From contig CAMAVQ010000004.1 of the NCBI GenBank assembly GCA_945861755.1, forward strand, positions 15,086 through 79,085: a DNA stretch of 64,000 bases, in the 5' to 3' direction. Both the position numbers and the translations under genes were made by a program. The notes under the pieces are model-generated. The model was not told the origin of the DNA, did no database searches, and was given only the letters and a program-made list of their open reading frames with translations. Below, piece by piece: positions 1,965-35,163 of this stretch (positions within the stretch are counted from its first letter, which is position 1; each line of letters begins with the position of its first letter). The stretch is from Gemmatimonas phototrophica (GTDB lineage Bacteria; Latescibacterota; UBA2968; UBA8231).

Positions 1965-3203
1965 TCAGAAGGAGGAGAACTCTTTCCTGGCGATGCGCTG
2001 TTTCAAGTCGGCGGTGATGCTGTCCAGTTCCAGTACTTCCATACCCAAGGCGTCGAGCAGCGGGAGCGACGGGGCTGCCGGCAGGGCGCAGGGCAGATCG
2101 GCAATGCCCAGGCGGTGTACCAGCACATCGGCCAGGTGGATCAGGCAGGCCAACGGATCGGGCTCCGGGCTGGCGGTAGGACGGCAGTGCCAGCGGATGG
2201 CTTCGGCCAGAGGAGCCGGCAGGTTCCACCACTCGGCCAAGTGGCCGCCCACTGCGGCGTGGGTGACGCCCAGCAAGTCTCGCTCGACAGCGGTAAAGGA
2301 GTGCTTCCCCTGGCGCGCCTGGCGGATCACCCGGGCGTACCGCCCGGGGATGGCGCTGGCCAGGACCAGCTTGCCCAGATCGTGCAGCAGACCAGCCAGG
2401 ATGGCGGCCTCCTGCTCCTGCTGGTCCCAGGACAGGCGCTGGGCGATCTGGCGGGCCAGCAGGCCGCAGGCCAGGGAGTGGCGCCACAGGGCCTCGTGGC
2501 TAAAACCTTCGACCTGCCGGATCTCCAGCACCTGGAAAACGCTGTGCGCCAGCACCAGGCCGTGTACCAAGGCCAGGCCCAGGACGGTCACGGCGCGCGC
2601 CACGTTTTCCACGTGGCGTCGCTGGCCGAAGAAGGTGGAGTTGGCCACCTGCAGCAGCTTGGCGGCCATGACCGGCTCGCGCAGGATGGCGCGGGCGATA
2701 GCCTCGACCGAAGGCTCCTCCTCTTCGAGCAGGTCTCGCACTTCAAAGTAGACCTGGGGCAGGACCGGCAGCGGACCGAGATGACTGAGAATAGCGTGTA
2801 ATCCGCGCGCCTCGTGCTCCTGGGACTCCTGCTGCCGCAGAAAACCGCGCAGGATGCCCTTGAGTTCCTCGTCGTCCCAGGGCTTGGCGATCATCTCGTG
2901 GATGCCCGCCTGTTCAAAGGCCCGCTGCACGGCCTCGCGTTCGGCGTAGCCAGTGAGCACTAGACGGGTCACTTGCGGGTACTGCCGGCGCACCTGCCCG
3001 AGAAAGACAGCGCCGTCCATGTGGGGCATGCGCATATCCGAGACTACCAGGTCCACGGGGTTGGCCGCCAGCAGCCTCAGGCCTTCTTGGCCGCTGCTGG
3101 CCAGCAGGAGCTTCCAGCCCTCCTTGCGCAGCAGGCGCCGCAGGGCAGAGAGTACATGGGGCTCGTCGTCCACCAAGAGCACGGTGTACTTTTCCGCGTT
3201 CAT
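1965..3203 (-). CDS. Response regulator, REC + HDOD domain
   Basis: 412-aa ORF. Receiver motifs VLLVDDEP, VSDMRMP and IAKPW. HDOD-like region PVLPQVYFEV...AAKLLQVANSTFFG...LLHDLGKLVL. ATGA overlap with the upstream kinase stop (3200-3203). Confidence 0.9.
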   Translation of the reverse strand: MNAEKYTVLLVDDEPHVLSALRRLLRKEGWKLLLASSGQEGLRLLAANPVDLVVSDMRMPHMDGAVFLGQVRRQYPQVTRLVLTGYAEREAVQRAFEQAGIHEMIAKPWDDEELKGILRGFLRQQESQEHEARGLHAILSHLGPLPVLPQVYFEVRDLLEEEEPSVEAIARAILREPVMAAKLLQVANSTFFGQRRHVENVARAVTVLGLALVHGLVLAHSVFQVLEIRQVEGFSHEALWRHSLACGLLARQIAQRLSWDQQEQEAAILAGLLHDLGKLVLASAIPGRYARVIRQARQGKHSFTAVERDLLGVTHAAVGGHLAEWWNLPAPLAEAIRWHCRPTASPEPDPLACLIHLADVLVHRLGIADLPCALPAAPSLPLLDALGMEVLELDSITADLKQRIARKEFSSF

Positions 3204-4471: not shown

Positions 4472-5075
4472 TGGTTTCCACCTCCGCCACAGCCCGCACC
4501 TCGACACCGGTCAGGCGGGAGACCTTTTCCACCAACGCGGCATTCTCAAAAGGCTTACCCAGCACCTCATCGGCGCCCCTGGCCACGGCTTCGTCGAGCC
4601 GCGGGCGCGGCAGCCCCGAGACCACGAGGATCTTGGTGCCCTGCAGGCGCGGGTGGCTGCGGACAAAACCGAGTACCTCCAGGCCCCCCAGCCCGGGCAT
4701 ACGCAGATCGAGGGTCATCACGTCCGGAGCCCAGGATTCCATCAGGGCCCCGGCGCTGAAGCCGTCAAAGGCCAGCTGGGTCTCGAAGCCGGCCCGGCGC
4801 AGGACCCGCTGTATCGCCCGGGCGGCGCCCTGGTCGTCGTCGACGATCAACACGCGCGGCGCAGCGTGTGGAGCGGGGCGCTGAAACTCCCCGGGCACCG
4901 GCAGGTTGTTTTGATGCAGAAAGCGGAGGAAATCATCCACCTCTACCCGGTTGTCGCCGCGCCCAGGCAGTTGGTAGGCCTTGAGGTGCCCCCGCTTGAT
5001 CCAGCGGATCACAGTGCGGAAATTGACTTTGCAGTATTGCGCAATCTCTCCGGTAGTCAACACGCTCTTTTCCAC
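4461..5075 (-). CDS. N-terminal MerR/excisionase-type HTH fused to a C-terminal receiver domain
   Basis: 204 aa. TTGEIAQYCKVNFRTVIRWIKRGHLKAY resembles an HTH_17-type helix-turn-helix. It is followed by VLIVDDD...LDLRMPGLGG...LGKPF, a receiver domain. Confidence 0.8.
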   Translation of the reverse strand: MEKSVLTTGEIAQYCKVNFRTVIRWIKRGHLKAYQLPGRGDNRVEVDDFLRFLHQNNLPVPGEFQRPAPHAAPRVLIVDDDQGAARAIQRVLRRAGFETQLAFDGFSAGALMESWAPDVMTLDLRMPGLGGLEVLGFVRSHPRLQGTKILVVSGLPRPRLDEAVARGADEVLGKPFENAALVEKVSRLTGVEVRAVAEVETNEA

Positions 5076-7559: not shown

Positions 7560-8081
7560 TCAGGAAACTTGGGCGGCGCCGGCCGCCAACAGGTCGCTGT
7601 AGGATTCGGCGATCAGCTGATCGCCCCTGATCTCCAGGGCCCGCATCAGGGTTTCCACCCGGGCGTGGCTCTCCTCCAGCTTCTTCTCTTCGGTCACCGC
7701 TTCCAGCTCCACGAATTGGCCCAGATCCTTCACATCGTCCAGGTGGATGCGCACATTCTCCCACAGCCAGACCTGGCGGGTCTTCTCCACCTCGATCCAA
7801 GTGCCCAACACCTGGCACAGCATATTGCGCATGGCCTCGGGATCGGTGGTGAAGGCCAGGTCGTAGTCGCTGCGCTTGGGACCTGGCAGATTCTCGCGGC
7901 GGTAATAGATCAGGTGGGCCTCGTCAGGGCCGATCTGGCGCAGCTTCAGCCGGCCTTCCTTGATATTGAAATAGGTGTCGCGTTGGTGAAAGCTACCCGC
8001 CGGCCCGGCACCCAGGGCGTTGAGATTTCGCTCAGCGCGCCCTAAGTCCTGACAGTACGCCTTGATCTCGATATTGGTCAT
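7560..8081 (-). CDS. CYTH-domain protein / class IV adenylate cyclase-like
   Basis: 173 aa. N-terminal NIEIKA (ExExK motif). Size and pattern match CyaB/CYTH proteins. Confidence 0.75.
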   Translation of the reverse strand: MTNIEIKAYCQDLGRAERNLNALGAGPAGSFHQRDTYFNIKEGRLKLRQIGPDEAHLIYYRRENLPGPKRSDYDLAFTTDPEAMRNMLCQVLGTWIEVEKTRQVWLWENVRIHLDDVKDLGQFVELEAVTEEKKLEESHARVETLMRALEIRGDQLIAESYSDLLAAGAAQVS

Positions 8082-8167
8082 GGCAGAGTTTGAACACGGA
8101 CTGCGGGGATGCCGGCCGGGGAGCCGGACGAATTAAATGTAGGTGTTCACCTGGGCCCAGGCAAGAA

Positions 8168-9223
8168 TCACCGCCTCCAGCCGCCCACCTCCATGCCCAG
8201 ACCGGCCAGTTTGTCCAACACCACCTGCCACCGCTGCCGGTCAAAGGGAATGCCCAGCTGCTGGCGCTGAACCTGCAATTGGCGGGCCCGGTCGCCGGGG
8301 GCCCGCACCTGGTCCACCCCGGCGGCCGGCGGAATGACGCGGGCGCTGTCGGCCAGAAAACCGCAGCGCTCGGCAAAATGTTCAACGCCGCCAAAATAGG
8401 CCGGGTCCAGGACCAGGGAGAAAAAGCCGCAGCCATAGGACTGCTTCAGCTCGGTGACCGGCGGCACGTCCCGGCCGCAGGGACCGCCAGCCAGGCCGCC
8501 GCAGAGCAGATCCACCAGTAACCCAAAACCGTAACCCAGAGCGCCTCCCACCGGCAGCAGCACCCCAGCCAGCGCGGCGGCCGCATCGGTGGTGGGCTTC
8601 CCCTCCCGGTCCAGGGCGATGTCCGGGGCAATGGAACGGCCCTCTTCAAAGGCCTGTTTGATGCGCGCGGCGGCATGGCCGGTGGCCGCGTCGAAAACCA
8701 GCGGCTCTCCCCCCTCGGTGGGTGCGGCGTAGGCGATGGGGTTGGTGCCGTGCAGCCCCTCCCGGCCGCCCTGGGGCGCCACCCGCGGCGTGGAGTTGGC
8801 CGCGCACAGCCCCAGCATGCCCTGGCGGGCAGGGCGCACAGCATAAAAAGCCAGGGCACCCACATAGTTGCTGTCCACCAGACTCACCGCTCCCACCCCG
8901 CACTGGCGGGCCTTGGCCAGGGCCAGGTCCATGGCCGCGCAGGCCAGCACCGGTCCCAGGCCCTGCTGCCCGTCGCACAGCGCCGTACCCGGCCCCTCCT
9001 GCCGGATGAGCAACTCCTTGCCCGGAACGATCTGCCCGGAGCGGATGCGCTCGATATAAGTGGGCAGCATGGCCACCCCGTGGCTGTCCACCCCGCGCAG
9101 GCTGGCGTCCAGCAGACTTTGGGTGCAGATCAGAGCTTCCCCAGAGGGCACTCCAGCCTGGGCCAGCACCTCCATGCAGAACTCCTCGGCCTTCGCTACC
9201 GACAGCGTGATCGTTTCGCTCAT
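8168..9223 (-). CDS. Ldh_2 family (malate/L-lactate/ureidoglycolate) dehydrogenase
   Basis: 351 aa. LLDASLRGVDSHGVAMLPTYIERIRSG and GTNPIAYAAP are typical of the Ldh_2 family. Confidence 0.8.
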   Translation of the reverse strand: MSETITLSVAKAEEFCMEVLAQAGVPSGEALICTQSLLDASLRGVDSHGVAMLPTYIERIRSGQIVPGKELLIRQEGPGTALCDGQQGLGPVLACAAMDLALAKARQCGVGAVSLVDSNYVGALAFYAVRPARQGMLGLCAANSTPRVAPQGGREGLHGTNPIAYAAPTEGGEPLVFDAATGHAAARIKQAFEEGRSIAPDIALDREGKPTTDAAAALAGVLLPVGGALGYGFGLLVDLLCGGLAGGPCGRDVPPVTELKQSYGCGFFSLVLDPAYFGGVEHFAERCGFLADSARVIPPAAGVDQVRAPGDRARQLQVQRQQLGIPFDRQRWQVVLDKLAGLGMEVGGWRR

Positions 9224-9337
9224 GGGTGCCTTCCTCGATGAGTTTTAGGATTGGAGTAATCTACCACGCTCACGGCAGGCAGACCAGCGCGGAGAACTTG
9301 CGCCGAGCGGGCAAATGCCGCAAAGTATATCCACTCT

Positions 9338-10315
9338 ATGAAAGCCATGCTCATCGACGAACAGAGCCCCGAGCGCGCCCTGCGCTGGGCCGAAGTCCCC
9401 GATCCGGTCCCTGGGCCGGGAGAAGTGCTGGTGGATATCCATGCCACTGCCGTCAACCGGGCCGACCTACTGCAACGGGCCGGCAACTACCCGCCTCCTC
9501 CGGGTGCCCCGCCCTATCTGGGGCTGGAGATGGCCGGGGTGGTGGCCGGACTGGGCGCTGGGGTGAAGGGTTGGCAGCCGGGCGAGCGGGTCTGCGCCTT
9601 GCTGGCCGGGGGCGGATACGCCGAAAAGGTGGCGGTGCCGGAGCAGTTGCTGGTGCGCCTGCCTGCGGATTGGGATTTCGCCAAGGCCGCCGCCTTCCCC
9701 GAGGTCTTCTACACCGCCTTCGTCAACCTCTTCGTGGAAGCCCAACTGCAGCCAGGCGAGTCGGTGCTGATCCACGGAGGGGCCAGCGGGGTGGGCACTG
9801 CGGCGATCCAGTTGGCATGCGCCGCAGAGTGTCGGGTGGCGGTCACTGCCGGCACCCCAGTCAAGCGGACCCGCTGCCTGGAACTGGGGGCCGAGTTGGC
9901 CATCGACTACCGCGAAAGCGATTTCGCCGAGGTGGTGCTGGAGCGCCTGGGCGGGGTGGATGTAATCCTCGACATTTCGGGCGGGGCGTACCTGGAGCGA
10001 AATCTAAAGATCCTCAACCTCAAAGGCCGGCTGGTGCTCATCGCCCTGCTGGGCGGCCCCACCGCTCCCATCGACCTGGGCCTGATGCTGCGCAGGCGGC
10101 TGCGGCTGATCGGCTCGGTGCTGCGCAGCCGCTTGCTAGAGGAGAAAACCGCCATTGTCCAGGGATTCGCTGCGCGTTTCTGGCCCCTGCTGGTGGCGGG
10201 CCGCATCGCGCCGGTGATCGAGACGGTGCTGCCCATCCAGCAGGCCGCCGAGGCGCACCAACTGCTGGCGGAAAACCGCAATATCGGCAAGGTAGTACTC
10301 ACTGTGAGGGAATGA
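9338..10315 (+). CDS. NAD(P)H:quinone oxidoreductase (MDR/zeta-crystallin, PIG3-like)
   Basis: 325 aa. VLVDIHATAVNRADLLQRAGNYPPPPGAPPYLGLEMAGVV...IHGGASGVGTAAIQ...GKVVL. Confidence 0.85.
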   Translation: MKAMLIDEQSPERALRWAEVPDPVPGPGEVLVDIHATAVNRADLLQRAGNYPPPPGAPPYLGLEMAGVVAGLGAGVKGWQPGERVCALLAGGGYAEKVAVPEQLLVRLPADWDFAKAAAFPEVFYTAFVNLFVEAQLQPGESVLIHGGASGVGTAAIQLACAAECRVAVTAGTPVKRTRCLELGAELAIDYRESDFAEVVLERLGGVDVILDISGGAYLERNLKILNLKGRLVLIALLGGPTAPIDLGLMLRRRLRLIGSVLRSRLLEEKTAIVQGFAARFWPLLVAGRIAPVIETVLPIQQAAEAHQLLAENRNIGKVVLTVRE

Positions 10316-10319
10316 ACCC

Positions 10320-11381
10320 ATGACCACACCCACCCGCTACCGGGAAATAAACGTCAGCGGCCCGCCCTTTGTGTTGGGCTGCCAGCTCGGCGAGGCCGCC
10401 CGCGAGGAGGTGCGCGGCTTTGCGGCTATCGCCCTGGAAAGGGTGAACAAGACGGTGCAGATCTCGCGCGCCAAAGCCATGGAACTGGCCGCCGCCAGCC
10501 TGCCCCACATCGAGGCGTACAGCCCTGCCATGCTCGAAGAATTGCGCGGGGTGGCCCACAGCTCGGGGGTGCCGATAGAGGAACTGATCCTATTGCAGGT
10601 CCGCAACCAGCTCCAGCCCGAGAAAGAAGCCGGCTGCACCTCCTTTGCCCTGGCGTCCCAGACCGCAGGACCCGGAAGCGTGGTGGGCCAGAACTGGGAC
10701 AACGACCCGGCTCTGGACCCCTACACGGTGGTGCTCACCCGCCGGCCCGAGGGCAAGCCGGCCCTGATGAACGTCACCCAGGCCGGCCTGATCGCCTATA
10801 TCGGCCTCAACAGCGAAGGTCTGGGCCTGTGCCTGAACACCCTGCCAGCCCCAAGCCGGCCCCTGGGTGTGCCGCATTATTTCATGGTGCGCGGCATCTT
10901 CGAAGCCACCTCGCTCGACGGGGCGGTAGCAGCCGTGGCCCGCGCCCAGCGGGCCATTCCCGCCAACATCATCCTGGCCACCCCACAGGGACCGGCGGAT
11001 ATGGAAGTGACCGTGGACCAAGTCCACGTGCTGCGCGACCAGGGCGGCGGTCTGGTCACCCACACCAACCACTGCCTGCACCCGGACCTGACACCCATCA
11101 ACGACTCTTTTCCCGAGTTGATCCAATCCGGGCCGCGCAAAGAGCGCCTCGACCACCTGCTGCAAGCGGCAGGCGGACCGGTGGGCATAGAAACCCTCAA
11201 ACAGGCCCTGCGCGATCACCAGGACTACCCCCACTCCATCTGCCGGCATGCCAACGACCACCCCATCAACGGGTACTGGGTCAGTGTCTTTTCGGTGATC
11301 ATCGAGGCCGACGCCGGGCGCATGCACCTGAGCCGGGGCAATCCCTGCACCCAACCCTACGAAGTCTACAGCCTCAACTGA
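10320..11381 (+). CDS. C45-family Ntn-hydrolase (acyl-CoA:6-APA acyltransferase-like)
   Basis: 353 aa. Putative nucleophile context EAGCTSFAL. Length and pattern fit peptidase family C45. Confidence 0.65.
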   Translation: MTTPTRYREINVSGPPFVLGCQLGEAAREEVRGFAAIALERVNKTVQISRAKAMELAAASLPHIEAYSPAMLEELRGVAHSSGVPIEELILLQVRNQLQPEKEAGCTSFALASQTAGPGSVVGQNWDNDPALDPYTVVLTRRPEGKPALMNVTQAGLIAYIGLNSEGLGLCLNTLPAPSRPLGVPHYFMVRGIFEATSLDGAVAAVARAQRAIPANIILATPQGPADMEVTVDQVHVLRDQGGGLVTHTNHCLHPDLTPINDSFPELIQSGPRKERLDHLLQAAGGPVGIETLKQALRDHQDYPHSICRHANDHPINGYWVSVFSVIIEADAGRMHLSRGNPCTQPYEVYSLN

Positions 11382-26402: not shown

Positions 26403-26434
26403 GGACGCCCTTTCGGTCGAAGCAATCCCTTTTT

Positions 26435-26450
26435 TCGACCTTTTGGTCGA
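26435..26450. promoter_or_regulatory. Perfect palindrome TCGACC-TTTT-GGTCGA, candidate enhancer (UAS) for a sigma54 activator
   Basis: 6-4-6 inverted repeat centred 109.5 bp upstream of the GG of the -24 element at 26552. An extra GGTCGA half-site lies at 26415-26420. Confidence 0.6.
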
Positions 26451-26550
26451 GATTCGGGGTACCCTGAAAGGGGCCGAATTTCTTTCGATATAGAAGGAAC
26501 CGTATTAGTTTTGGGATGTTAGCCCGCCAGTCGCCCTGCATCCTCCCGGC

Positions 26551-26605: not shown

Positions 26606-27289
26606 ATGAGATTTTGCGGAGTGCTGATGGCGCTCTTGGCCTTGGCCTCCCCAGCTCTAGCCCAACCGGCAGCCCCCCCGCCCGCCAGTCAGCAGAACAC
26701 CCCTGACAAAAAAGAGGCGTTTCTAGGCTTTGTCGACGCCGATCGCGACGGCATCAACGACCGGTTCCGCGACGCCGAAGGCGACGGCCGAGACGACGTC
26801 AGCGGCAAGACCTACCCCCACCGCTTTGCCTTTGTCGACCAGAACAAGGACGGGGTCAACGATCTGTTTGTCGATCGCAACGGGGACGGGGTCAACGACC
26901 TGAATGCCGAATGCGGCCAGAGCGAGGATGGGGGCTGTGCCAATGTGGTGGACCAGGACCGCAACGGCGTCAACGATATCACCGGCCTGCGCTACACCAG
27001 GAATTCGCTGCGCGGCTACCGCTACGGACGGATCGCCGAAGAGTTGCGCCAGCCCCTGCCGCGTTTTGTGGACCAGGACGGAGACGGGATGAACGACCTG
27101 ATCCAGCGTTTCTTCAACCGCATGGAAATGGACGGTCATCCGCCCTTCGACCGCTTCATCGACGAAGACGGGGACGGCATCAACGACAACCGCCCCCACC
27201 CCCGGCCCTTTGACCGGGATGGGATGAACCACGGCGACCGGCCACCCCATCCCCGCCGGCCTCCGCCCAGGGGGGGACCGCATCGATGA
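26606..27289 (+). CDS. Secreted protein with seven EF-hand-like DxDxDG(x)ND calcium-binding loops and a Pro/Arg/His-rich tail
   Basis: ATG 26606 after GAGGAGG. Signal peptide MRFCGVLMALLALASPALA. Loops DADRDGIND, DAEGDGRDD, DQNKDGVND, DRNGDGVND, DQDRNGVND, DQDGDGMND, DEDGDGIND. Confidence 0.8.
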   Translation: MRFCGVLMALLALASPALAQPAAPPPASQQNTPDKKEAFLGFVDADRDGINDRFRDAEGDGRDDVSGKTYPHRFAFVDQNKDGVNDLFVDRNGDGVNDLNAECGQSEDGGCANVVDQDRNGVNDITGLRYTRNSLRGYRYGRIAEELRQPLPRFVDQDGDGMNDLIQRFFNRMEMDGHPPFDRFIDEDGDGINDNRPHPRPFDRDGMNHGDRPPHPRRPPPRGGPHR

Positions 27290-28377
27290 TCGTCCTGATC
27301 GCCGCCCTGCTCCTCAGCCTGAGCGCAGCCTTAGCCCAGCCCGCAGTGCGCCTCAATCTCTACTCCAGCTACACCGACAACCTGTTCCAGTCCAGCCAAC
27401 GCGATGCCGACTGGGTTGAGTTGCTGTACGTGGACCTGGACTGGGGATTGAGCGGCAACACGGGCCTATACTACACGGGCAATGCCAGCCTGTTCCGCCA
27501 ATACCGCGAGTTGTTCAACCACGCCCATGTCCTGGGCCTGAACTACGGCCGCGCCGGGCAGGCCGGCGAGTTGCATGCCGGCGCCACCCTCTCGACCCGT
27601 CTGGACCGCCGACGCTACGACTACCGCGATTTTGCCGGGGGCAGCGCCTTCGTCGAGGCCAAGCGCTATCTGCGGGAGGATCTGTTGGTGCGGACCGGCT
27701 ACACCCTGCGTTTGCAGGAGTACCTCAATGTCAGCCGTCAGAGCTACGTGGAGCAGAACGCCACGGCCCGGCTGACCCGCTTTTTGCCCAGCCGCACCAC
27801 GCTGGAGCTGCGCGCCGAACTGGGCGTCAAGTCGTACCTGAGGCGGGGTGAGGGAGAGTTCTTCGGCGCCGAGCGGGGACGGCATCTGGTCCAGGGCTTG
27901 GGCGGCCTGAAGCTGGCCCAGTCCCTGGGCGGCCGCACCGGCCTCCAGCTCGAATACACCCGCCAGCACAGCTTTTCGGGGCAGGGCCGCTTAGTACAGG
28001 TCGAAGATCTGTTCCAGATGCTCCGGGGCGATACCGCTGCCGCTGTCCTCTATTTCGACCTCAGCGCCCCCGTCTGCCCGGCGCCGCGTGGTCACCCGGA
28101 TCTGGCCGCTCTGGGTGGCTTCCACGGCATTGCTCAACAGATTCTGCACCGCCTGGACAAACTGGTCGGGGTCCAGTTGCCAGGTCCCCACCCCGCCGTA
28201 CTGGCGTTCCACCCGCAATCCCTTGGCCCGGGCCCGGGGTTCCTGGGCGGCCACTGCCTGTTCCACAATTTCCTCCAGATTCGCTGGGCGCCGCGCCAGC
28301 GCCGGCGGGCGGGCCAGGCTGAGAAAATCCCTGACGATGCGGTTGACCCGCCCCACCTCGCCGCGCACCACCTTTAG
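27286..28377 (+). CDS. Signal-peptide protein with outer-membrane beta-barrel-like strand pattern; native 3' end apparently missing
   Basis: ATGA overlap with the upstream gene. MIVLIAALLLSLSAALA, then alternating-strand sequence to about ...GLQLEYTRQHSFSGQG (about 27985). Beyond that the frame only stays open antisense to the kinase gene. Confidence 0.5.
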   Translation: MIVLIAALLLSLSAALAQPAVRLNLYSSYTDNLFQSSQRDADWVELLYVDLDWGLSGNTGLYYTGNASLFRQYRELFNHAHVLGLNYGRAGQAGELHAGATLSTRLDRRRYDYRDFAGGSAFVEAKRYLREDLLVRTGYTLRLQEYLNVSRQSYVEQNATARLTRFLPSRTTLELRAELGVKSYLRRGEGEFFGAERGRHLVQGLGGLKLAQSLGGRTGLQLEYTRQHSFSGQGRLVQVEDLFQMLRGDTAAAVLYFDLSAPVCPAPRGHPDLAALGGFHGIAQQILHRLDKLVGVQLPGPHPAVLAFHPQSLGPGPGFLGGHCLFHNFLQIRWAPRQRRRAGQAEKIPDDAVDPPHLAAHHL

Positions 28378-29874
28378 CAGACTTCGGTATTCCTGCTGGT
28401 CGCGCTGCGGCTCAAATTCGCGCTCCAGGCGCTGGGCGATGATGCCGATGGCGTTGAGCGGATTGCGCACCTCGTGGGCCACGCCCGAAGCCAGGGCGCC
28501 CATGGAGGCCATGCGCTCGCGGCGGCGCAGATCCGCCTCCAGGGCCGCCATTTCCGTCAGATCCTGGGCCACCACCACTACAGTCTCCACCTCGCCGCGG
28601 CTGTTGCGCACCAGGGAGGTGGACAGCGAGAGCAGGCGCTCCTGCCCCCCCACCAGATAGCGCTGCGCCCCTTCCTGGCCTTCGACGCTCTCGCGCAGGG
28701 CCCCTTCGACCGGGGGCAGGACCGCGCCCACCACCTCGGCGTAAGGGTGGCCTGTCGCCGCCGCTGCGGTGGTGCCGAAGAGCGTCTGAGCACTCTGGTT
28801 GAGCACCTCGATCCGGCCGGCGGTATCCATGGCCATCACCGCGTCGGTCATCTGCGCCAGGATGCGGCTGCTGTAGGTCTGCACCCGGGCGTAGGCCTCG
28901 TCGAGCAGGGCGTAGTTCTGGCGGATGGTCAGCACCCCGGCCCCGGCCGCCCCCAACACCGCCAGCAGGCCGGCTAACAGCACCAGCTGCAATTGATCCC
29001 GGTGCCTTTCGGCCTGCAGCGCCTCCACCGACAGCCCCACCCGCAACAGACCCAGGGGTTTGCCTTCGGGCGCAAAGGCCATGGCCGTCTCAAAGATCTC
29101 CTTGCCCTCGAATTGGGCAAGGCGCGAGACCGGCACCGAGCCGGCCAGGGCCCTGCTGAGGAAGGGATCGGTGGCGATCTTGCCCAGTTGGCCGATGCCG
29201 CTGGACCCCAGGAGAATGCCGGCCGAATCCTGCAGGGCGGCGAAGATCACCCCCTGGTTATCGCCGATCTCGCGGATCAGGCGGCCAATGCCGGCGGCCC
29301 GGCGCAGTTCGTGCAGGTACCGGGCCGAGGCCTGCACCAGGATAACCCCGCCTTCAGCAACCGGGGCCGCCACGGCGTAAAGTTCGGCTGCGTCGAGCAC
29401 CACTTGGTGAGAGAGGGCGGTGTGGTCGTACACCTCGGCCAATTCCTCCCACCACCAATCCAGCTCAAGACGGTCCATGGGCTGGGAACTGCTGCTGTAC
29501 CGCGGATACCCACGGCCATCGAAGACCTCGATACGCGCCAGGCTCTGTTCCTGGGTCACCTGGACCAGCAGCGCATCGTTCAGCCCCCGGTGCCCCTGGA
29601 GCCGGGCCAGGCCGCGGCCAATGCTCAGCAGGTGCTCCTGCACCAGCTGGTCTAGTTCCTCCTCGGCGCGCAGGGCGTTTTCGCCGGCCCGGGCCATGGC
29701 CTGCACCAGGGCGGCCGAGCTGTGTTCCAGGGTTTCGAGGGTGTTCTTGCGGGAGGTGTGTAACTCGTACCAGGCAAAACCTCCCAGCGCGGCGATCAGC
29801 ACCCCGGCCAGGGCAGCCAGGTATCCGGGCCGGAACGGGGTGGGCTTGAGGGCGGGAGAGAGGGTCCGGACCAT
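27991..29874 (-). CDS. Membrane sensor histidine kinase, ZraS/AtoS/NtrB-like (2 TM + periplasmic domain + PAS + HisKA), truncated inside HATPase_c
   Basis: H-box ALASGVAHEVRNPLNAI, N-box NLLSNAVEA, G1 box EDSGSGI. It then ends ...EHLEQIFDLY-stop, where IFDPFFTTK...GTGLGL (F and G2 boxes) is expected. Confidence 0.8.
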   Translation of the reverse strand: MVRTLSPALKPTPFRPGYLAALAGVLIAALGGFAWYELHTSRKNTLETLEHSSAALVQAMARAGENALRAEEELDQLVQEHLLSIGRGLARLQGHRGLNDALLVQVTQEQSLARIEVFDGRGYPRYSSSSQPMDRLELDWWWEELAEVYDHTALSHQVVLDAAELYAVAAPVAEGGVILVQASARYLHELRRAAGIGRLIREIGDNQGVIFAALQDSAGILLGSSGIGQLGKIATDPFLSRALAGSVPVSRLAQFEGKEIFETAMAFAPEGKPLGLLRVGLSVEALQAERHRDQLQLVLLAGLLAVLGAAGAGVLTIRQNYALLDEAYARVQTYSSRILAQMTDAVMAMDTAGRIEVLNQSAQTLFGTTAAAATGHPYAEVVGAVLPPVEGALRESVEGQEGAQRYLVGGQERLLSLSTSLVRNSRGEVETVVVVAQDLTEMAALEADLRRRERMASMGALASGVAHEVRNPLNAIGIIAQRLEREFEPQRDQQEYRSLLKVVRGEVGRVNRIVRDFLSLARPPALARRPANLEEIVEQAVAAQEPRARAKGLRVERQYGGVGTWQLDPDQFVQAVQNLLSNAVEATQSGQIRVTTRRRADGGAEVEIEDSGSGIAPEHLEQIFDLY

Positions 29875-29944
29875 GGCTTAAAGGTAGCGCCCCCCATCCT
29901 TCAGCGCACCCTGGCGCAGGGAGAAGAGCGCCGACTGCCAGGGG

Positions 29945-30814
29945 TTAGTGGCCTGCTTCTGTCGCCAGCACGACCATGACCCAAAGTTGCAGTGGCTGAG
30001 GCTGCACTCCACCTGAGGGTGGCCTTCTCCTGCCGCCACTCGGCATCATACCCTCTCCACGGCCGCCGCCCATACCCATGCCATCCGGCCCCAGGCCGCT
30101 ATCCCCTCTGCCCATGCCCTCCGGCCCCATGCCGCCGTCCCTCCGACTTCTCATCGCCCCCCGGCCCGGCACGCTCGTTTCAAAGGCAACACTCAACTGC
30201 TGGCCGGGTCGGACGCCCAGGCCATAGGGATGGTCCTGGTCGCGCCTGAGCGGAATTTTTAACTCGTAGACCAGCCGGTTGTCGACCTGCACCACCTTGA
30301 GATCAACCCCGGGTGCATCGGTATCCTTCATCTGGTGCCGCTCGCCCTTTCCGGGCCCGATGATCTCCATTTGGCCCAGCGCGATGGCCGGCGGAGGCTC
30401 CAGGGACGCCCGCTCCATCCGCTCCCCGCGGTCGGGTTGCGCTGCCTCATCGTCCTCGCCGGCAGCAAAGGGCTGGTCCCTGCCTCCTGTCGCATTTGGA
30501 AAGTGGATGCCGAAATTTCTCTGCCTTCCCCCGCTGACATCGAACCACACCGTGAAGCCCAGCCTCATCACCTGGGCCTGGGTGACTCGGTCGGCCGAGG
30601 CGAGGCGGAGATACAGGAAGTCCTCGTCATTGAGCAGGCTGACGACGGTATTGCCCGTGGCCACATAGGTCAGGGTGCCCTGCCATTCAGCGTCCCTGCC
30701 GTCGATGGTGATCTCGCGGGTCCGCCAGTTGCTGTCCATCTCGAGTTTGCCACATCCGGCAGCCGAAAGGACCAGTCCCCAACTGAGTACCAGTCGGGCA
30801 ACTGCGCTTTTCAT
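29945..30814 (-). CDS. Lipoprotein with Gly/Met/Arg-rich low-complexity C-terminal region
   Basis: 289 aa. Lipobox LSAAGC. The globular N-domain is followed by GGMGPEGMGRGDSGLGPDGMGMGGGRGEGMMPSGG. Confidence 0.75.
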   Translation of the reverse strand: MKSAVARLVLSWGLVLSAAGCGKLEMDSNWRTREITIDGRDAEWQGTLTYVATGNTVVSLLNDEDFLYLRLASADRVTQAQVMRLGFTVWFDVSGGRQRNFGIHFPNATGGRDQPFAAGEDDEAAQPDRGERMERASLEPPPAIALGQMEIIGPGKGERHQMKDTDAPGVDLKVVQVDNRLVYELKIPLRRDQDHPYGLGVRPGQQLSVAFETSVPGRGAMRSRRDGGMGPEGMGRGDSGLGPDGMGMGGGRGEGMMPSGGRRRPPSGGVQPQPLQLWVMVVLATEAGH

Positions 30815-30834
30815 TTTTCGCCTCCCCTTTCCGG

Positions 30835-30993
30835 TCAGGGGGTGATTTTCAGCGTTTCCCCTTCCACGCTCACCGCCACCTGGGCCAGGTTGCGGCGGGC
30901 CGGCCCCGTGAGCACCTTGCCCCTCAGGTCGAGAGGATAGGAGCCATCGGCGGTTGTCGTCAAGGATGCTCCGGTATTATTCGATCCGGTCAT
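30835..30993 (-). CDS. Possible 52-aa micro-ORF between the DUF3300-like gene and the lipoprotein gene
   Basis: ATG 30993 is preceded by GGAGGGGG and overlaps the upstream stop by 17 nt. Sequence MTGSNNTGASLTTTADGSYPLDLRGKVLTGPARRNLAQVAVSVEGETLKITP. The stop lies 20 nt before the lipoprotein ATG. Confidence 0.35.
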   Translation of the reverse strand: MTGSNNTGASLTTTADGSYPLDLRGKVLTGPARRNLAQVAVSVEGETLKITP

Positions 30994-31513
30994 CCCCCTC
31001 CGGCTCGTCGAGGCCGTTGAGGTCGTAATCGTAACGATCCGCACGGGATCGGGACACCTGCCGCACCTCTTTCCCTCTGGAGGCCACCCTGTCCGGGGGT
31101 GTTCTATCAGAGCGCCCCGGATACAGCTGGGCCAGCTGCTGCCGGACCTGGCCGGGGTCCTGGCGGTATGCGTCGCCCAGCAGGACGACCTGATCCAAGT
31201 CCTTTTCCAGCAGTTCCACGAATTCCGGGTACTGCAAGAGCAGACGCGCCTGATCCTGGGCCTGGGCAGGGTAGTTGGAGAGTAGGACAGTGGAATTGGT
31301 TTCGGCCCGCTGGTTTAACGCGGCGATTTCGGCCAGCACCCGGGCATCCCGGCGCACCCACTTGCGGGCGACGGGGCCGACCTCCGCGGGGTACTGGGCG
31401 AGGGTCTGACGGACGGCGCGTTGTTCGTCGCGCCCCCCGCGTTCCGCAGCCACGCCGACTCCGGGATGGGCCAGGAGTATCGTGGTAAGAGCCATACAAC
31501 TCAGCGTTTTCAT
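30977..31513 (-). CDS. Secreted protein with repeated (Q/N)YP motifs, DUF3300-like
   Basis: ATG 31513 lies 7 nt after GAGGAGG. Signal peptide MKTLSCMALTTILLAHPGVGVAA. Repeats LAQYPAEV, LSNYPAQA, LLQYPEFV, LAQLYPGR. Confidence 0.65.
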   Translation of the reverse strand: MKTLSCMALTTILLAHPGVGVAAERGGRDEQRAVRQTLAQYPAEVGPVARKWVRRDARVLAEIAALNQRAETNSTVLLSNYPAQAQDQARLLLQYPEFVELLEKDLDQVVLLGDAYRQDPGQVRQQLAQLYPGRSDRTPPDRVASRGKEVRQVSRSRADRYDYDLNGLDEPEGDDRIE

Positions 31514-31612
31514 GGGCACACCTCCTCGGTCAGGAGCCAGACGAGACCTCTAGTGGCGAAAAACCGGGACAGCCTCTTTGGTGTGCAGACTGTCCTGGCA
31601 CAATAATTGTTC

Positions 31613-32275
31613 CTAATCCGCGTTCTTGAGCTGACCCCAGGAGGTCGATTCGACCGCGGTGGCCGGCTCGTCATCCGACACGACCACCTTGGCGGCAGAC
31701 AGGGTGCTGGTGCCGGTGCTGCTGGTACCCGCAGCCGGTATCTCAGCTCCCGCCCTGGTGCATATACCAAAGGGGCCCGCAGCGCGCAGCGCGGCCAACT
31801 TAGCCTGCTGTTCTTCGGTGAGCAGGGCCTCAAAGGCGGTCTGGAACTCGGCGTGCAGGGCCTGGTGTTTGTCCCCGTACTCGGTGCGCAGGGCCGCGAA
31901 CTGGGTCTGCTGATCAGCGCTGAGATTCAACACTGGCCTCCGGTGATGCCGGCCTCCGCCGCTAGCGGCCGTTTCGGCCAGCACGGCCTGCTGCTCTGGG
32001 GTGAGCAGAGCGCTGACCGCGGCCTGCTCCTCGTCGCGCAGGGCCAGTTCTTTTTCCTCCAGGGTAGCCTTCAGGGCGTCGAGCTGGGCCTGCTGCTCAA
32101 TGCTCAACCCCAGCTGGGTACTCAACCCCACCCGAGCACCCTTCACCATACCCATACCCCGGCCCATACCCATGCCGCCCTGACGAGTGCCCCCCTTATT
32201 GCCGTGGGCGCTCGCGCCCATAGCAGAAGCGGCGATGACCAGCAGCGCGCCGGCCAGGATCCATGTCTTCTTCAT
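31613..32275 (-). CDS. Periplasmic Spy/CpxP/ZraP-family protein (four LTxxQ-type motifs, GMGMG tract)
   Basis: 220 aa. Signal peptide. GGMGMGRGMGM near the mature N-terminus. LSIEQQAQL, LTPEQQAVL, LSADQQTQF and LTEEQQAKL. An extra ~55-aa Ser/Thr-rich tail. Confidence 0.8.
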   Translation of the reverse strand: MKKTWILAGALLVIAASAMGASAHGNKGGTRQGGMGMGRGMGMVKGARVGLSTQLGLSIEQQAQLDALKATLEEKELALRDEEQAAVSALLTPEQQAVLAETAASGGGRHHRRPVLNLSADQQTQFAALRTEYGDKHQALHAEFQTAFEALLTEEQQAKLAALRAAGPFGICTRAGAEIPAAGTSSTGTSTLSAAKVVVSDDEPATAVESTSWGQLKNAD

Positions 32276-32368
32276 ACCCTTCCTCCTTGTGATTTGAATG
32301 AGTTGCAGGCGCCCGACAGCTTCGTTTGCCTGCCAGCCGCCTGACTCTTGCGGCTGAGCTATGGATTA

Positions 32369-32383
32369 GCAAAGGGGATGCCG
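32369..32383 (-). promoter_or_regulatory. sigma54 -24/-12 promoter (CGGCAT-CCCCT-TTGC on the minus strand) for the ZraP-like gene
   Basis: The minus strand reads GCGCGGCATCCCCTTTGCTAAT. GG and GC have the correct spacing. From the GG to the GC, 13 of 14 positions are identical to the promoter at 26551. It lies about 95 nt upstream of ATG 32275. Confidence 0.6.
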
Positions 32384-32483
32384 CGCTGAGATCCTGGGGA
32401 TTCATCTATTTACAAGCCGCTGCTAAATAACACTTTACAAACAATAACCCCCGCCATCTTCGCTTGGCAGCCCCTCGGGAACA

Positions 32484-32499
32484 GCGACCGAATGGTCGA
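32484..32499. promoter_or_regulatory. Palindrome GCGACC-GAAT-GGTCGA, candidate UAS
   Basis: Same 6-4-6 architecture as 26435-26450. Its centre is 109.5 bp from the GG of the minus-strand -24 element, the same distance as at the other promoter. Confidence 0.6.
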
Positions 32500-32564
32500 G
32501 GGTGGAGGAGGGGGAGATGTTGTTTTTGTTGCGCTTCCCCGCCCATCGGGCTGCTACTTTACAT

Positions 32565-32580
32565 TCGACCAAATGGTCGA
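32565..32580. promoter_or_regulatory. Palindrome TCGACC-AAAT-GGTCGA, second candidate UAS
   Basis: Perfect 6-4-6 inverted repeat, centre-to-centre 81 bp from the 32484 site. It also lies 21 bp upstream of the -35 of the trp leader promoter. The flanks repeat as well (AATGGTCGAGGG). Confidence 0.55.
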
Positions 32581-32600: not shown

Positions 32601-32629
32601 TTGACAGGGGCAGGGGGGGCTTGTATCTT
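32601..32629 (+). promoter_or_regulatory. sigma70-type promoter for the trp leader (TTGACA-17 nt-TATCTT)
   Basis: TTGACA at 32601-32606, a 17-nt G-rich spacer, then TATCTT at 32624-32629. Confidence 0.55.
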
Positions 32630-32668
32630 GACTGCACCAAATTTTCACCCTGCATGAGGACTGAAGAC

Positions 32669-32761
32669 ATGAAACTCCGCTCTACCCATAGCAACCGTTG
32701 GTGGCGCTCCTGGCCATATACTTGGAGTATTGCAGGAGTGCGTCCACCCCACAGCGCATAG
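32669..32761 (+). CDS. trpL: trp operon leader peptide (30 aa, 4 Trp codons including a WW pair)
   Basis: MKLRSTHSNRWWRSWPYTWSIAGVRPPHSA. GAGGA lies 8 nt upstream of the ATG. A strong terminator follows, immediately before trpE(G). Confidence 0.75.
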   Translation: MKLRSTHSNRWWRSWPYTWSIAGVRPPHSA

Positions 32762-32785
32762 CAGCCGATTCACTGGAGCAAGCTA

Positions 32786-32826
32786 AAACCGCGGGCGCAC
32801 CTAAAGCGCTCGCGGTTTCTTTTTTT
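32786..32826 (+). terminator. Attenuator terminator upstream of trpE(G)
   Basis: AAACCGCGGGCGC-acctaaa-GCGCTCGCGGTTT (13-bp stem with one G-U pair) followed by CTTTTTTT. It ends 14 nt before ATG 32840. Confidence 0.85.
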
Positions 32827-32839
32827 GGGAGAGGATGAC

Positions 32840-34981
32840 ATGTATACCTATCTGACCGCCGGCGGCGTTGAGATCACCTGCGCCGTCGAGGAGTTGCCCG
32901 TCGCCGGGGCCCTGGACCAAGTGCTGGCGCGGCTGGATGCCCACCGCGGCGCGGTGTTTGCCAGCGGCTACGAATATCCGGGGCGGTACAGCCGCTGGGA
33001 CATCGGCTTCGTCGATCCGCCGGTGGAGCTGGTGGCCCGCAGCCGCGACTTCACCGTGCGCGCCCTCAACGAGCGGGGCCGGCCCCTGCTGCAGATCTTC
33101 CGCCAAGGGCTGGAGGGCCATGCCCACCTCAGCGCCCTGGAGGGCAGCGGGGACGAGTTGCGCGGCCAGGTGGCGCCCATGCCCACCCACTTCCCCGAGG
33201 AGGAGCGCTCCAAGCAGCCCACCATCTTCAGCCTGCTGCGCGCCCTGGTCCAGCAGTTCGGCGCCCCCGGCGAGCCCCACCTGGGCTTCTACGGGGCCAT
33301 GGGCTACGACCTGGTCTTCCAATTCGAGCCCATAACCCTGCGCCACCGGCGCCCGGCCCAACACCCCGACCTGCACCTCTTTTTGCCCGACGAGCTGATC
33401 GTCGTCGACCATCGCAAGGAGCAGGCCCTCAGGTACCGCTACGATTTCCGCCTCGGCCAACGCTCCACCCACGGCGTGGCCGGCGGCGGCCAAACCATCC
33501 CGCCGGTAAAGGGTGCCCCTTCCTCCCTGACGAGCGACCATGCCCCCGGCGAGTACGCCGACAAGGTGCGCCGGATCATCGAGGGCACCGGCCGGGGCGA
33601 CTTCTTTGAGGTCGTGCCCAGCCAGGTGCTCAGCGCCGGTTTTGCCGGGGCGCCCAGCGAACTCTTCGCCAATATCCGCCGCACCAATCCCAGCCCGTAC
33701 GAGTTCCTCATCAACCTGGGCCATGAGCAACTGGTGGGCGCCTCGCCCGAGATGTTCGTGCGGGTCGAAGGCACCCAGGTGGAGACCTGCCCCATCGCCG
33801 GCACTATCCGGCGCGGAGCTTCACCCATCGAGGACGCCGACCAGATCCTGACCCTGCTCAACTCGCAGAAGGACGAGGCCGAGTTGACCATGTGTACCGA
33901 CGTGGACCGCAACGACAAGGCCCGCGTCTGCAAGGCCGGCAGTGTGCGGGTGCTGGGCCGCCGGCTGATCGAGACCTACTCGCGGCTCATCCACACCGTG
34001 GATCACGTGGTGGGCGAACTGCGGCCCGGCTTCGACGCCTTCGACGCGCTGCTCTCCCACCTGTGGGCCGTCACCCTGACCGGAGCGCCCAAGCCAGCGG
34101 CCATGCAGATGATCGAGACGCTGGAAAACTCGGCGCGGCGCTGGTACGGGGGCTGTGTGGGCATGTTGCGCTTCAACGGCGACATCAACACCGGCATCAC
34201 CATCCGCACCGTCCACCTGGAGGGGGGAGAGGCCAGGGTGCGGGTGGGGGCCACTATCCTCTGCGATTCAGATCCCGACGAGGAAGAGCGGGAATGCCGC
34301 ACCAAGGCCGAGGCCTTCACCAACGCGGTGCTGGGGGCCCCGCAGCGGCAGCAAAGTGCGGCTGTCCTGCGTGCCACCGGCACTGGCAAGAAGGTGCTCT
34401 TTGTCGACAACCGCGACTCCTTTGTGCACACCCTGGGGGATTATGTGCGCCAGACCGGGGCCCAGGTCACCACCCTGCGGGCCGGCTTTCCCTATCACCT
34501 GCTCGACGAGATGAAGCCCGACCTGGTCTTCATCTCCCCAGGGCCGGGCACCCCCGAGGAGTTCGGGGTGCCCGAGCTGGTGCGCCAGTGTGTGCAGCGC
34601 CGACTGCCGGTCTTTGGGGTGTGCCTGGGGCTGCAGGGCATGGTCGAGGCTTTTGGCGGCAAGCTGGGGGTACTGGGGTACCCCATGCACGGCAAGAGTT
34701 CGGTGGTCGAATGCTCAGGAGAGGGTTTTCTCGAAGGCTTCCCCGCCCGCTTCGTGGCTGGCCGCTACCACTCCCTCTTCGCCGTGCCCGAGGCCCTGCC
34801 CGCCTGCCTCAAGGTGCGGGCCCACACCGAGGAAGGGGTGATCATGGCCGTGGAGCACGAGAGCTATCCGGCGGCGGCGGTGCAGTTCCACCCCGAATCC
34901 ATCCTCACCCTCAAGGAGGACCTGGGCCTCCGGCTCATCTCTCGGGTGATGGAAAGACTGGCGAAGGGAGCGAAGGCATGA
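32840..34981 (+). CDS. trpE: Anthranilate synthase, fused component I + glutamine amidotransferase component II, TrpE(G)
   Basis: The N-terminal ~500 aa are a chorismate-binding enzyme (FEVVPSQ, GASPEMFV, DRNDKARV, LTGAPK, RWYGG). The C-terminal ~200 aa are GATase-1 (FVDNRDSFVHTL, FGVCLGLQ, VQFHPES). ATG 32840 follows GGGAGAGGA. Confidence 0.92.
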   Translation: MYTYLTAGGVEITCAVEELPVAGALDQVLARLDAHRGAVFASGYEYPGRYSRWDIGFVDPPVELVARSRDFTVRALNERGRPLLQIFRQGLEGHAHLSALEGSGDELRGQVAPMPTHFPEEERSKQPTIFSLLRALVQQFGAPGEPHLGFYGAMGYDLVFQFEPITLRHRRPAQHPDLHLFLPDELIVVDHRKEQALRYRYDFRLGQRSTHGVAGGGQTIPPVKGAPSSLTSDHAPGEYADKVRRIIEGTGRGDFFEVVPSQVLSAGFAGAPSELFANIRRTNPSPYEFLINLGHEQLVGASPEMFVRVEGTQVETCPIAGTIRRGASPIEDADQILTLLNSQKDEAELTMCTDVDRNDKARVCKAGSVRVLGRRLIETYSRLIHTVDHVVGELRPGFDAFDALLSHLWAVTLTGAPKPAAMQMIETLENSARRWYGGCVGMLRFNGDINTGITIRTVHLEGGEARVRVGATILCDSDPDEEERECRTKAEAFTNAVLGAPQRQQSAAVLRATGTGKKVLFVDNRDSFVHTLGDYVRQTGAQVTTLRAGFPYHLLDEMKPDLVFISPGPGTPEEFGVPELVRQCVQRRLPVFGVCLGLQGMVEAFGGKLGVLGYPMHGKSSVVECSGEGFLEGFPARFVAGRYHSLFAVPEALPACLKVRAHTEEGVIMAVEHESYPAAAVQFHPESILTLKEDLGLRLISRVMERLAKGAKA

Positions 34982-35163
34982 TCCGCGTCTACGGCCTGCG
35001 CGAAAAACTGAACCCCATCAAGAGCCGGCTCTCGGACCTCATCAACACCTGCATGGTCGAGGCGCTAAAGTTTCCCCCAAACAAAAGGGCGCATCGTTTC
35101 TTCCCGCTGGAACGCGAGGACCTCTACTACCCAGAGGGCCGCACCGACGCGTACACCGTGTAG
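34978..35163 (+). pseudogene. Truncated tautomerase-family (Tautomerase_2-like) gene fragment, 61 codons
   Basis: MIRVYGLREKLNPIKSRLSDLINTCMVEALKFPPNKRAHRFFPLEREDLYYPEGRTDAYTV-stop. From memory, full-length relatives are about 125-130 aa and continue after ...TDAYT. ATGA overlap with the trpE(G) stop. Confidence 0.5.

Follow-up and report, generated by a model that had tools for sequence, protein, structure and literature searches.

We analyzed a 64,000-nucleotide stretch of contig CAMAVQ010000004.1 (assembly GCA_945861755.1, named Gemmatimonas phototrophica and placed by GTDB in the Latescibacterota), hereafter the window, in which two promoters of the sigma-54 (-24/-12) type, P1 and P2, each head an operon and share the palindrome TCGACC-N4-GGTCGA. 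It is very likely that P1 and P2 are the targets of a single sigma-54 two-component system whose activator has recently been deleted, and both operons are predicted to be orphaned. Sigma-54 RNA polymerase forms a closed complex at -24/-12 elements that it cannot open unaided, and the operons would be orphaned because promoters of this kind cannot fire without an activator. A preliminary description of the window had proposed a small regulon with no activator gene in sight; the two promoters and their common operator stand, while the absence of the activator is now traced to a recent deletion.

Promoters and enhancer palindromes

P1 and P2, together with their palindromes, all lie where the preliminary description had placed them (Table 1), although two of its details need correction: the 14-position cores from GG to GC show two differences (C/T at 5 and T/C at 9) rather than one, and the two operons are convergent, not divergent. 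At both promoters exactly 10 bp separate the GG from the GC, in the context TGGCAC-N5-TTGC, and each promoter lies on the same strand as its first gene, P1 ∼41 bp from the ATG at 26606 and P2 ∼94 bp from the ATG at 32275 (minus strand). The pattern GGCAY-N5-TTGC occurs five times in the 64-kb window. No sigma-70-like promoter was found ahead of either first gene, and the RpoN box (rpoN gene) is not encoded in the window. In alignments with relatives of the locus, which are described below and designated by L numbers, the P1 sequence is conserved in seven lineages and the P2 sequence is the same in L134, L142, and L001; in the P2 region, the window differs from the intact strain L134 by two single-nucleotide polymorphisms, both outside the motifs. 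The prediction that P1 and P2 are sigma-54-dependent promoters is thus supported.

The palindromes were located by the distance from their centre to the first G of the GG. Within the window this distance is indeed 109.5 bp for the proximal palindrome at both promoters, as first described, and the second, perfect copy does lie 81 bp further upstream of P2, with the flank AATGGTCGAGGG common to both P2 copies. Each promoter therefore has a pair of sites, at 109.5 and 139.5 bp for P1 and at 109.5 and 190.5 bp for P2, which is the paired-site geometry of enhancers; sites for bacterial enhancer-binding proteins (bEBPs) typically lie 80-200 bp upstream. Palindromes with at most one mismatch number five in 64 kb, against 0.13 expected from shuffled sequence, and the three non-coding copies all stand upstream of P1 or P2, so that the palindrome does not behave as the common repeat that the preliminary description had considered as an alternative.

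Comparison of the relatives shows that the two promoters differ in how strictly this spacing is kept. For P2, the proximal distance is 109.5 bp in all four lineages in which it is readable (the window, L134, L003, and L142), and a perfect distal copy stands at 190.5-191.5 bp in the latter three, giving a pair 81-82 bp apart in all four; a two-site spacing of ∼80 bp is also found in L037 and L137-L141. For P1, the distance is 109.5 bp in the window and L142 only, and 97.5-99.5 bp in L134, L001, L002, L003, and L136. Equal spacing at 109.5 bp was therefore rejected as a universal rule. An 11-bp segment, equal to one helical turn, distinguishes the two P1 forms (∼98.5 and 109.5 bp); a face-of-the-helix constraint would fit this dimorphism but is not proved by it. 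The preliminary description had judged two promoters of identical core, operator, and spacing very unlikely by chance. The palindromes are indeed in large excess, but since P1 spacing takes two forms among the relatives, identical spacing carries less weight as an argument than was claimed. The GGTCGAA half-site of the degenerate P1 distal copy is invariant across seven lineages, and orthologous loci keep both promoters and their palindromes in place amid diverging intergenic DNA.

Loss of the activator gene

How, then, can two such promoters persist at a locus with no activator gene? The window encodes no AAA+/sigma-54 activator domain and no GAFTGA motif, in keeping with the earlier statement that it holds no AAA+ protein of the sigma-54-interacting kind. 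When the bEBP of the relatives was compared with the window by tblastn, it matched only receiver domains, at 1494-1919, 2850-3194, and 4515-4853 (minus strand). All three are over 23 kb away from the locus, and since they are without an AAA+ sigma-54 domain they are not the missing activator.

The answer comes from the relatives. When genomes, one per species, were scanned with the window's kinase, metagenome-assembled genomes (MAGs) of Candidatus Latescibacterota emerged. L001 and L002 have a full-length kinase (672-673 aa), followed directly by a bEBP of 453-455 aa with the domains Response_reg (PF00072), Sigma54_activat (PF00158, E = 1e-73), AAA_lid (PF25601), and HTH_8 (PF02954), and with a GAFTGA motif. 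Close homologues of this type of bEBP led in turn to L134 (ENA ERZ27280287). At 97.4-98.9% identity to the window, this strain has an intact locus: the trp operon is followed by genes for a Spy-like protein of 220 aa, proteins of 256, 42, and 289 aa, the kinase (673 aa), and the bEBP (451 aa), and then, on the opposite strand, by those for the outer-membrane-like protein (359 aa) and the Asp-rich protein (227 aa), with an ABC transporter beyond. Further intact loci are found in L135, L136, and L142. Across the intact relatives the PAS kinase measures 672-675 aa and the NtrC-family bEBP 451-455 aa. The preliminary description had suggested that relatives might carry a kinase and bEBP pair at the position of the 27.99-kb junction, and such a pair is found exactly there in L001, L002, L134, L135, L136, and L142.

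A base-by-base comparison with L134 shows that exactly 1,866 bp are missing from the window at the junction 27992|27993. The deletion takes the last 46 residues of the kinase, including the GTGLGL G2 box (ATP-lid), the whole NtrC-family bEBP gene, and the last 126 codons (3' third) of the outer-membrane-like gene. The two truncated genes adjoin at ∼27,990, where the outer-membrane-like gene, after 233 codons, loses its frame and reads on into kinase antisense sequence. Relative to L134 the kinase is without its G2 box and C-terminus (residues FTTKAEGTGLGL... are absent), and its HATPase_c match covers profile positions 2-59 of 111; with this domain (N, G1, F, and G2 boxes) not complete, the window kinase is predicted to be catalytically incomplete. 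No microhomology or repeat was found at the junction. The same 627-aa truncated kinase and the same junction recur in five samples and two assembly sources (ENA assemblies and Logan), on six or more contigs that are 99.8-100% identical to the window; one of these contigs is colinear over 21.9 kb. The deletion allele is represented by ERZ27280297, ERZ27280310, ERZ27280328, ERR5863107, and ERR3719144, and the intact locus by ERZ27280287 and ERZ27265269. We consider the deletion real because the identical truncated kinase is present in five independent samples, and the comparison points firmly to a biological, recent, strain-level event. It is this event, rather than control from elsewhere, that accounts for the absence of the activator, and it also explains why the truncated kinase has no partner and why the outer-membrane-like gene is truncated. 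The cis elements would still be perfect because the loss is recent.

A larger deletion is seen in L003 (SICG01000003.1, a MAG from Lake Baikal, 7740-10560), where 4,638 bp enclosing the same region are missing between flanks that are ∼94% identical. Here the Asp-rich gene is frameshifted early, the -12 element of P2 has changed from TTGC to TTCC, and the P1 palindrome carries a symmetric double change, to TCGACT-TTTT-AGTCGA. This looks like progressive decay of an orphaned regulon, with sequence errors in the MAG as another possible source of such changes; whether the L003 deletion arose independently of the window's or as a second step on top of it is undecided. The P2 operon (29714-32383) diverges from L003 with dS of 0.5-1.0, against 0.08-0.29 in the flanking housekeeping genes, and since this higher divergence is synonymous as well, recombination or an older allele is favoured over decay. 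Relaxed selection after loss of the activator was considered and rejected, since the P2 genes, with dN/dS of 0.19-0.32, show no rise over the comparison with an intact-locus lineage. Nothing in L003 matches the 178-aa gene, and in L142 the middle of the P2 operon instead holds genes for proteins of 343, 175 (DUF4136), and 109 aa; this part of the operon thus varies between lineages, and these features suggest that the P2 operon is a recombining, variable island.

Ownership of the operator and competing explanations

To see whether the palindrome belongs with the lost bEBP, we searched metagenomes for the DNA pattern of a palindrome followed after 85-115 bp by GGCAY-N5-TTGC. The pattern alone retrieved at least 120 loci, and the following results hold among the matches listed. 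A coherent class of ∼30 has TTCGACC-(A/T-rich W4)-GGTCGAA at 100.5-106.5 bp (∼102 bp) from a near-consensus TGGCAC-N5-TTGC, usually with a second, weaker site 21-22 or ∼80 bp away, and downstream of these sites are genes for Gly/Met-rich Spy-like proteins, secreted proteins with FVDANGDG, or small membrane proteins. A bEBP 41-65% identical to that of L001 is present at 15-17 loci, where the usual order is promoter, Spy-like gene, kinase, and bEBP, all on one strand. Such bEBPs are enriched where the palindrome has an A/T-rich spacer (12/46 vs 3/74, Fisher p = 0.001).

The reverse search gave a concordant picture. Loci fetched solely through orthologues of the bEBP (64-68% identity), some with Gemmatimonadetes or Handelsmanbacteria in their source names, all show a perfect TGGCAC-N5-TTGC and two copies of TCGACn-N4-GGTCGA at 98.5 and 177.5-187.5 bp, ahead of a convergent operon for proteins of 190, 230, and 366 aa. 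The C-terminal HTH_8 region of the bEBP (..GVQSRAA.LLGLTERNLRYKLKKYG) is strongly conserved across the family. Judging from both searches, promoter and palindrome travel with orthologous bEBPs in metagenomes and in contigs labelled Gemmatimonadota, and three lines of evidence say that TCGACC-N4-GGTCGA is the predicted operator of the locus bEBP.

From these data we propose the following ancestral mechanism. The ancestral P2 operon, as it still stands in strains 97-99% identical to this one, comprised the Spy/CpxP/ZraP-like gene, variable small genes, the PAS kinase, and the NtrC-family bEBP, with the P1 operon (Asp-rich secreted and outer-membrane-like proteins) converging on it. Phosphorylated bEBP dimers would bind the paired TCGACC-N4-GGTCGA sites ∼100-190 bp upstream, assemble an ATPase ring, loop over the A/T-rich stretch or the conserved block, and open the sigma-54 closed complex. 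The output would be an envelope or periplasmic response together with the system's own synthesis (positive autoregulation) and induction of the convergent operon. In the deletion strain, with no activator, an incomplete kinase, and one truncated target, P1 and P2 should be silent unless another bEBP cross-activates them.

Several points weigh against this interpretation. Part of the pattern set, among the matches listed, consists of chance matches within coding sequence, and we infer both the sigma-54 dependence and the interaction of bEBP and palindrome from sequence and co-occurrence. The surviving target genes are intact, with dN/dS of 0.19-0.32 and no decay, which fits continued use equally well; such a lack of decay is also expected because the loss would be recent. 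The main residual uncertainty is a bEBP paralogue of the same specificity elsewhere in the genome. If such an NtrC-family protein still drove P1 and P2, the deletion would have rewired only the input signal, and the fully intact cis elements and target open reading frames of the window would follow naturally; bEBPs are also numerous in the genomes of these phyla (thousands of homologues were scored), and the Fis-type helix-turn-helix (HTH) is similar among family members. We nevertheless find continued control by a paralogue unlikely. In a collection of 5.8 billion proteins, the cluster at 90% or more identity to the intact-strain bEBP (P0004) is represented on two contigs only, both intact loci, and for the samples with the deletion allele there is no record of a relocated copy. 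The motif adjoins its own bEBP gene in every lineage examined, and in L003, with its larger deletion, the targets do decay (GC-to-CC at -12, the P1 gene frameshifted, the palindrome mutated).

We give far less credence to the idea that the palindromes are operators of a regulator other than a bEBP, a repressor or a sigma-70 activator, and merely happen to lie near -24/-12-like sequences. Many dimeric regulators do typically recognise palindromes of the 6-N4-6 form, and the distal P2 copy is ∼22 bp from the -35 element of the divergent trp-leader promoter. In L003, however, the distal palindrome is ∼950 bp away from the trp promoter, which assigns this copy to P2; paired sites ∼100-190 bp upstream are the geometry of bEBP enhancers and not of a repressor, and the co-occurrence of the palindrome with TGGCAC-N5-TTGC and an adjacent orthologous bEBP holds across phyla and in both search directions. 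Hardly more credible, and if anything less so, is an assembly artefact, in which the activator would be missing from a chimeric or collapsed contig. The window is probably metagenome-assembled, and its junction has no repeat or microhomology to explain a deletion, but the recurrence of truncated kinase and junction across contigs, samples, and assembly sources argues strongly against such an error. Recent loss of the activator from a bEBP-controlled regulon thus remains the best explanation. Going beyond it, one could suppose that loss of sensor and activator is recurrent and selected in natural Latescibacterota, with the envelope or outer-membrane regulon switched off or its perfectly preserved promoters captured by another bEBP; we raise this doubtful extension because the 1,866-bp deletion occurs in five samples beside intact strains and L003 carries its 4,638-bp deletion.

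Genes, flanking sequences, and known systems

The features of the locus are collected in Table 1.

Table 1. Features of the P1 and P2 regions in window coordinates (UAS, upstream activating sequence; distances are from palindrome centre to the first G of GG).
Feature	Position	Strand	Sequence or product	Remarks
P1 distal UAS	26405-26420		ACGCCC-TTTC-GGTCGA	degenerate; 139.5 bp from GG
P1 proximal UAS palindrome	26435-26450		TCGACC-TTTT-GGTCGA	109.5 bp from GG; conserved in 7 lineages
P1 block	26496-26524		GGAACCGTATTAGTTTTGGGATGTTAGCC; segments CGTATTAGTTT and GTTAGCC	between UAS and -24; nearly invariant
P1	26551-26565	+	TGGCAC-CCCTT-TTGC = TGGCACCCCTTTTGC	sigma-54 -24/-12 consensus; heads P1 operon
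P1 operon gene 1	26606-27289	+	secreted, 227 aa, 7-8 DxDxDGxND repeats	uncharacterised family
P1 operon gene 2	27286-27992	+	outer-membrane-like, truncated	233/359 codons kept
Deletion junction	27992-27993			blunt; by comparison with L134
Sensor histidine kinase	27991-29874	-	PAS-HisKA-HATPase_c, truncated, 627 aa	672-675 aa in relatives; last P2-operon gene
P2 operon middle genes	29945-31513	-	178, 42, and 289 aa	no family assignment
P2 operon gene 1	31613-32275	-	secreted LTXXQ (Spy/CpxP/ZraP) family, 220 aa	Gly/Met-rich N-terminal part
P2 transcript 5' leader	32276-32357	-	CAGCCGCAAGAGTCAGGCGGYTGGCAGGCAAAC	conserved; two predicted hairpins
P2	32369-32383	-	CGGCAT-CCCCT-TTGC = CGGCATCCCCTTTGC	sigma-54-type -24/-12; 5' of Spy/CpxP/ZraP-like gene
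A/T-rich stretch	32404-32448			between UAS and P2; possible bending or IHF-like site
P2 proximal UAS palindrome	32484-32499		GCGACC-GAAT-GGTCGA	one mismatch; 109.5 bp from GG
P2 distal UAS palindrome	32565-32580		TCGACC-AAAT-GGTCGA	perfect; 190.5 bp from GG

The first gene of the P2 operon matches Pfam PF07813 just above threshold (25.5 bits vs a cut-off of 24.3), and its homologues carry the same domain under the source name 'Spy/CpxP family protein refolding chaperone'. The Asp-rich protein that opens the P1 operon has no Pfam or NCBIfam family match; at least 136 homologues, all 'hypothetical', carry Latescibacterota, Gemmatimonadota, or Glassbacteria labels, and its AlphaFold model, of mediocre quality (pLDDT 61), gave no meaningful match to the PDB with Foldseek. 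As a guess from its DxDxDG-like repeats, it may bind calcium or another divalent metal. Inside the P2 operon, 5' of the 289-aa gene, there is a sigma-70-like match, TTGACG-18-TATCCT (30963-30934, minus strand), which is a consensus match only; it could give basal expression of kinase and bEBP in intact strains. Two further differences from L134 lie nearby. A 210-bp deletion with 24-bp repeat flanks (31380-31403) lies inside the 178-aa gene, which encodes 256 aa in L134, and a 194-bp deletion at ∼35154-35157 leaves a 61-aa open reading frame (34978-35163) of a Tautomerase_2 gene that encodes 127 aa in both L134 and L142.

Between the enhancers and the genes, the segments CGTATTAGTTT and GTTAGCC of the P1 block show little or no variation across seven lineages while the remaining intergenic DNA diverges, and the block could be the site of a bending protein or of a second regulator. 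On the P2 side, the A/T-rich stretch may be a bending or IHF-like site; in the wider family, A/T content is highest 25-40 bp upstream of the GG. Read by eye, the E. coli IHF consensus fits both the P1 block and the A/T-rich stretch poorly. The 5' leader of the P2 transcript is far better conserved in the alignment than its surroundings, and its predicted fold, with two hairpins, has an energy of -29.6 kcal/mol and a z-score of -2.65. In an Rfam search of 26.0-33.2 kb this leader had no match, and the sole other result was a sub-threshold Trp_leader (23 bits, below the gathering score of 41). The latter belongs to a classic-looking trp attenuator at 32601-32830, ahead of a fused trpE(G) at 32840, with a sigma-70-like promoter (TTGACA-17-TATCTT, 32601-32629), a leader peptide of 30 codons with four Trp (32669-32761, MKLRSTHSNRWWRSWPYTWSIAGVRPPHSA), and a terminator formed by a 13-bp hairpin and a T-run (32786-32828).

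It is instructive to compare this locus with ZraPSR (HydH/HydG) of E. coli and Salmonella, which is likewise a sigma-54 two-component system of a kinase and an NtrC-family bEBP, has a periplasmic LTXXQ/CpxP/Spy/ZraP protein as its main target, activates its own operon, and uses paired inverted-repeat enhancers upstream of -24/-12 promoters. The bEBP of the relatives matches ZraR strongly (456 bits in NCBIfam; Salmonella ZraR, PDB 1ojl, E = 5e-98), but 456 bits is below the equivalog cut-off of 760, and the two are not orthologous. Its best NCBIfam match, AtoC, likewise falls short (520 bits against 714), and no family model reaches its curated cut-off for this protein. The operators also differ: reading the zraP-zraS intergenic region directly from the fetched genome, we find the E. 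coli ZraR operator to be an inverted pair of GAGTAAAAATGACTCGC at ∼55-60 bp from the GG by our own count, in contrast to TCGACC-N4-GGTCGA at ∼100-190 bp here. Thus in sequence, spacing, and gene arrangement the locus departs from the E. coli type, with its GAGTAAAAATGACTC inverted repeats and divergent zraP-zraSR. In the present locus the kinase-bEBP operon begins with the chaperone gene, whereas zraP of E. coli is divergent; there is a second, convergent target operon (Asp-rich and outer-membrane-like proteins); and the kinase has a PAS domain and is closer to AtoS.

With NtrC/AtoC-type systems, such as NtrC at glnAp2, the locus shares two palindromes ∼100-140 bp upstream, the receiver-AAA+-Fis HTH architecture, and the GAFTGA loop, and Aquifex NtrC4 (4l4u) is the best solved structure for the relatives' bEBP. 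In contrast, its operator is different and its targets are envelope or periplasmic proteins rather than those of nitrogen or acetoacetate metabolism. We found no description of a TCGACC-N4-GGTCGA operator in the searchable literature, which is not proof that none exists. On these comparisons the system is best classed as an uncharacterised ZraPSR-like envelope regulon under a bEBP of the well-known NtrC-family kind. It also resembles known cases in which loss of a regulator leaves orphan cis elements, in that the deletion is small and clean, the sites persist, and L003 has decayed further; unlike those cases, the promoters here are of a strictly activator-dependent class, so that a complete off-switch for both operons is predicted.

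These results do not overturn known principles of sigma-54 regulation. They account for two oddities of annotation, the partnerless truncated kinase and the truncated outer-membrane-like gene, and they provide a concrete sigma-54 regulon for a phylum that has no cultured, genetically studied members, with its parts defined: an operator, tTCGACC-AwwT-GGTCGAa, that occurs in pairs, two types of promoter, and the cognate kinase and bEBP. The range of the system appears to extend to lineages labelled Gemmatimonadota and to other environmental lineages. Because intact and deleted loci occur at 97-99% identity in one metagenome set, they amount to a natural, isogenic-like knockout pair, which could serve to examine whether the targets fall silent once the activator is lost. 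If the loss should prove to be recurrent, or the promoters to have been captured by another bEBP, the Latescibacterota would offer a view of natural rewiring of a sigma-54 regulon in progress.

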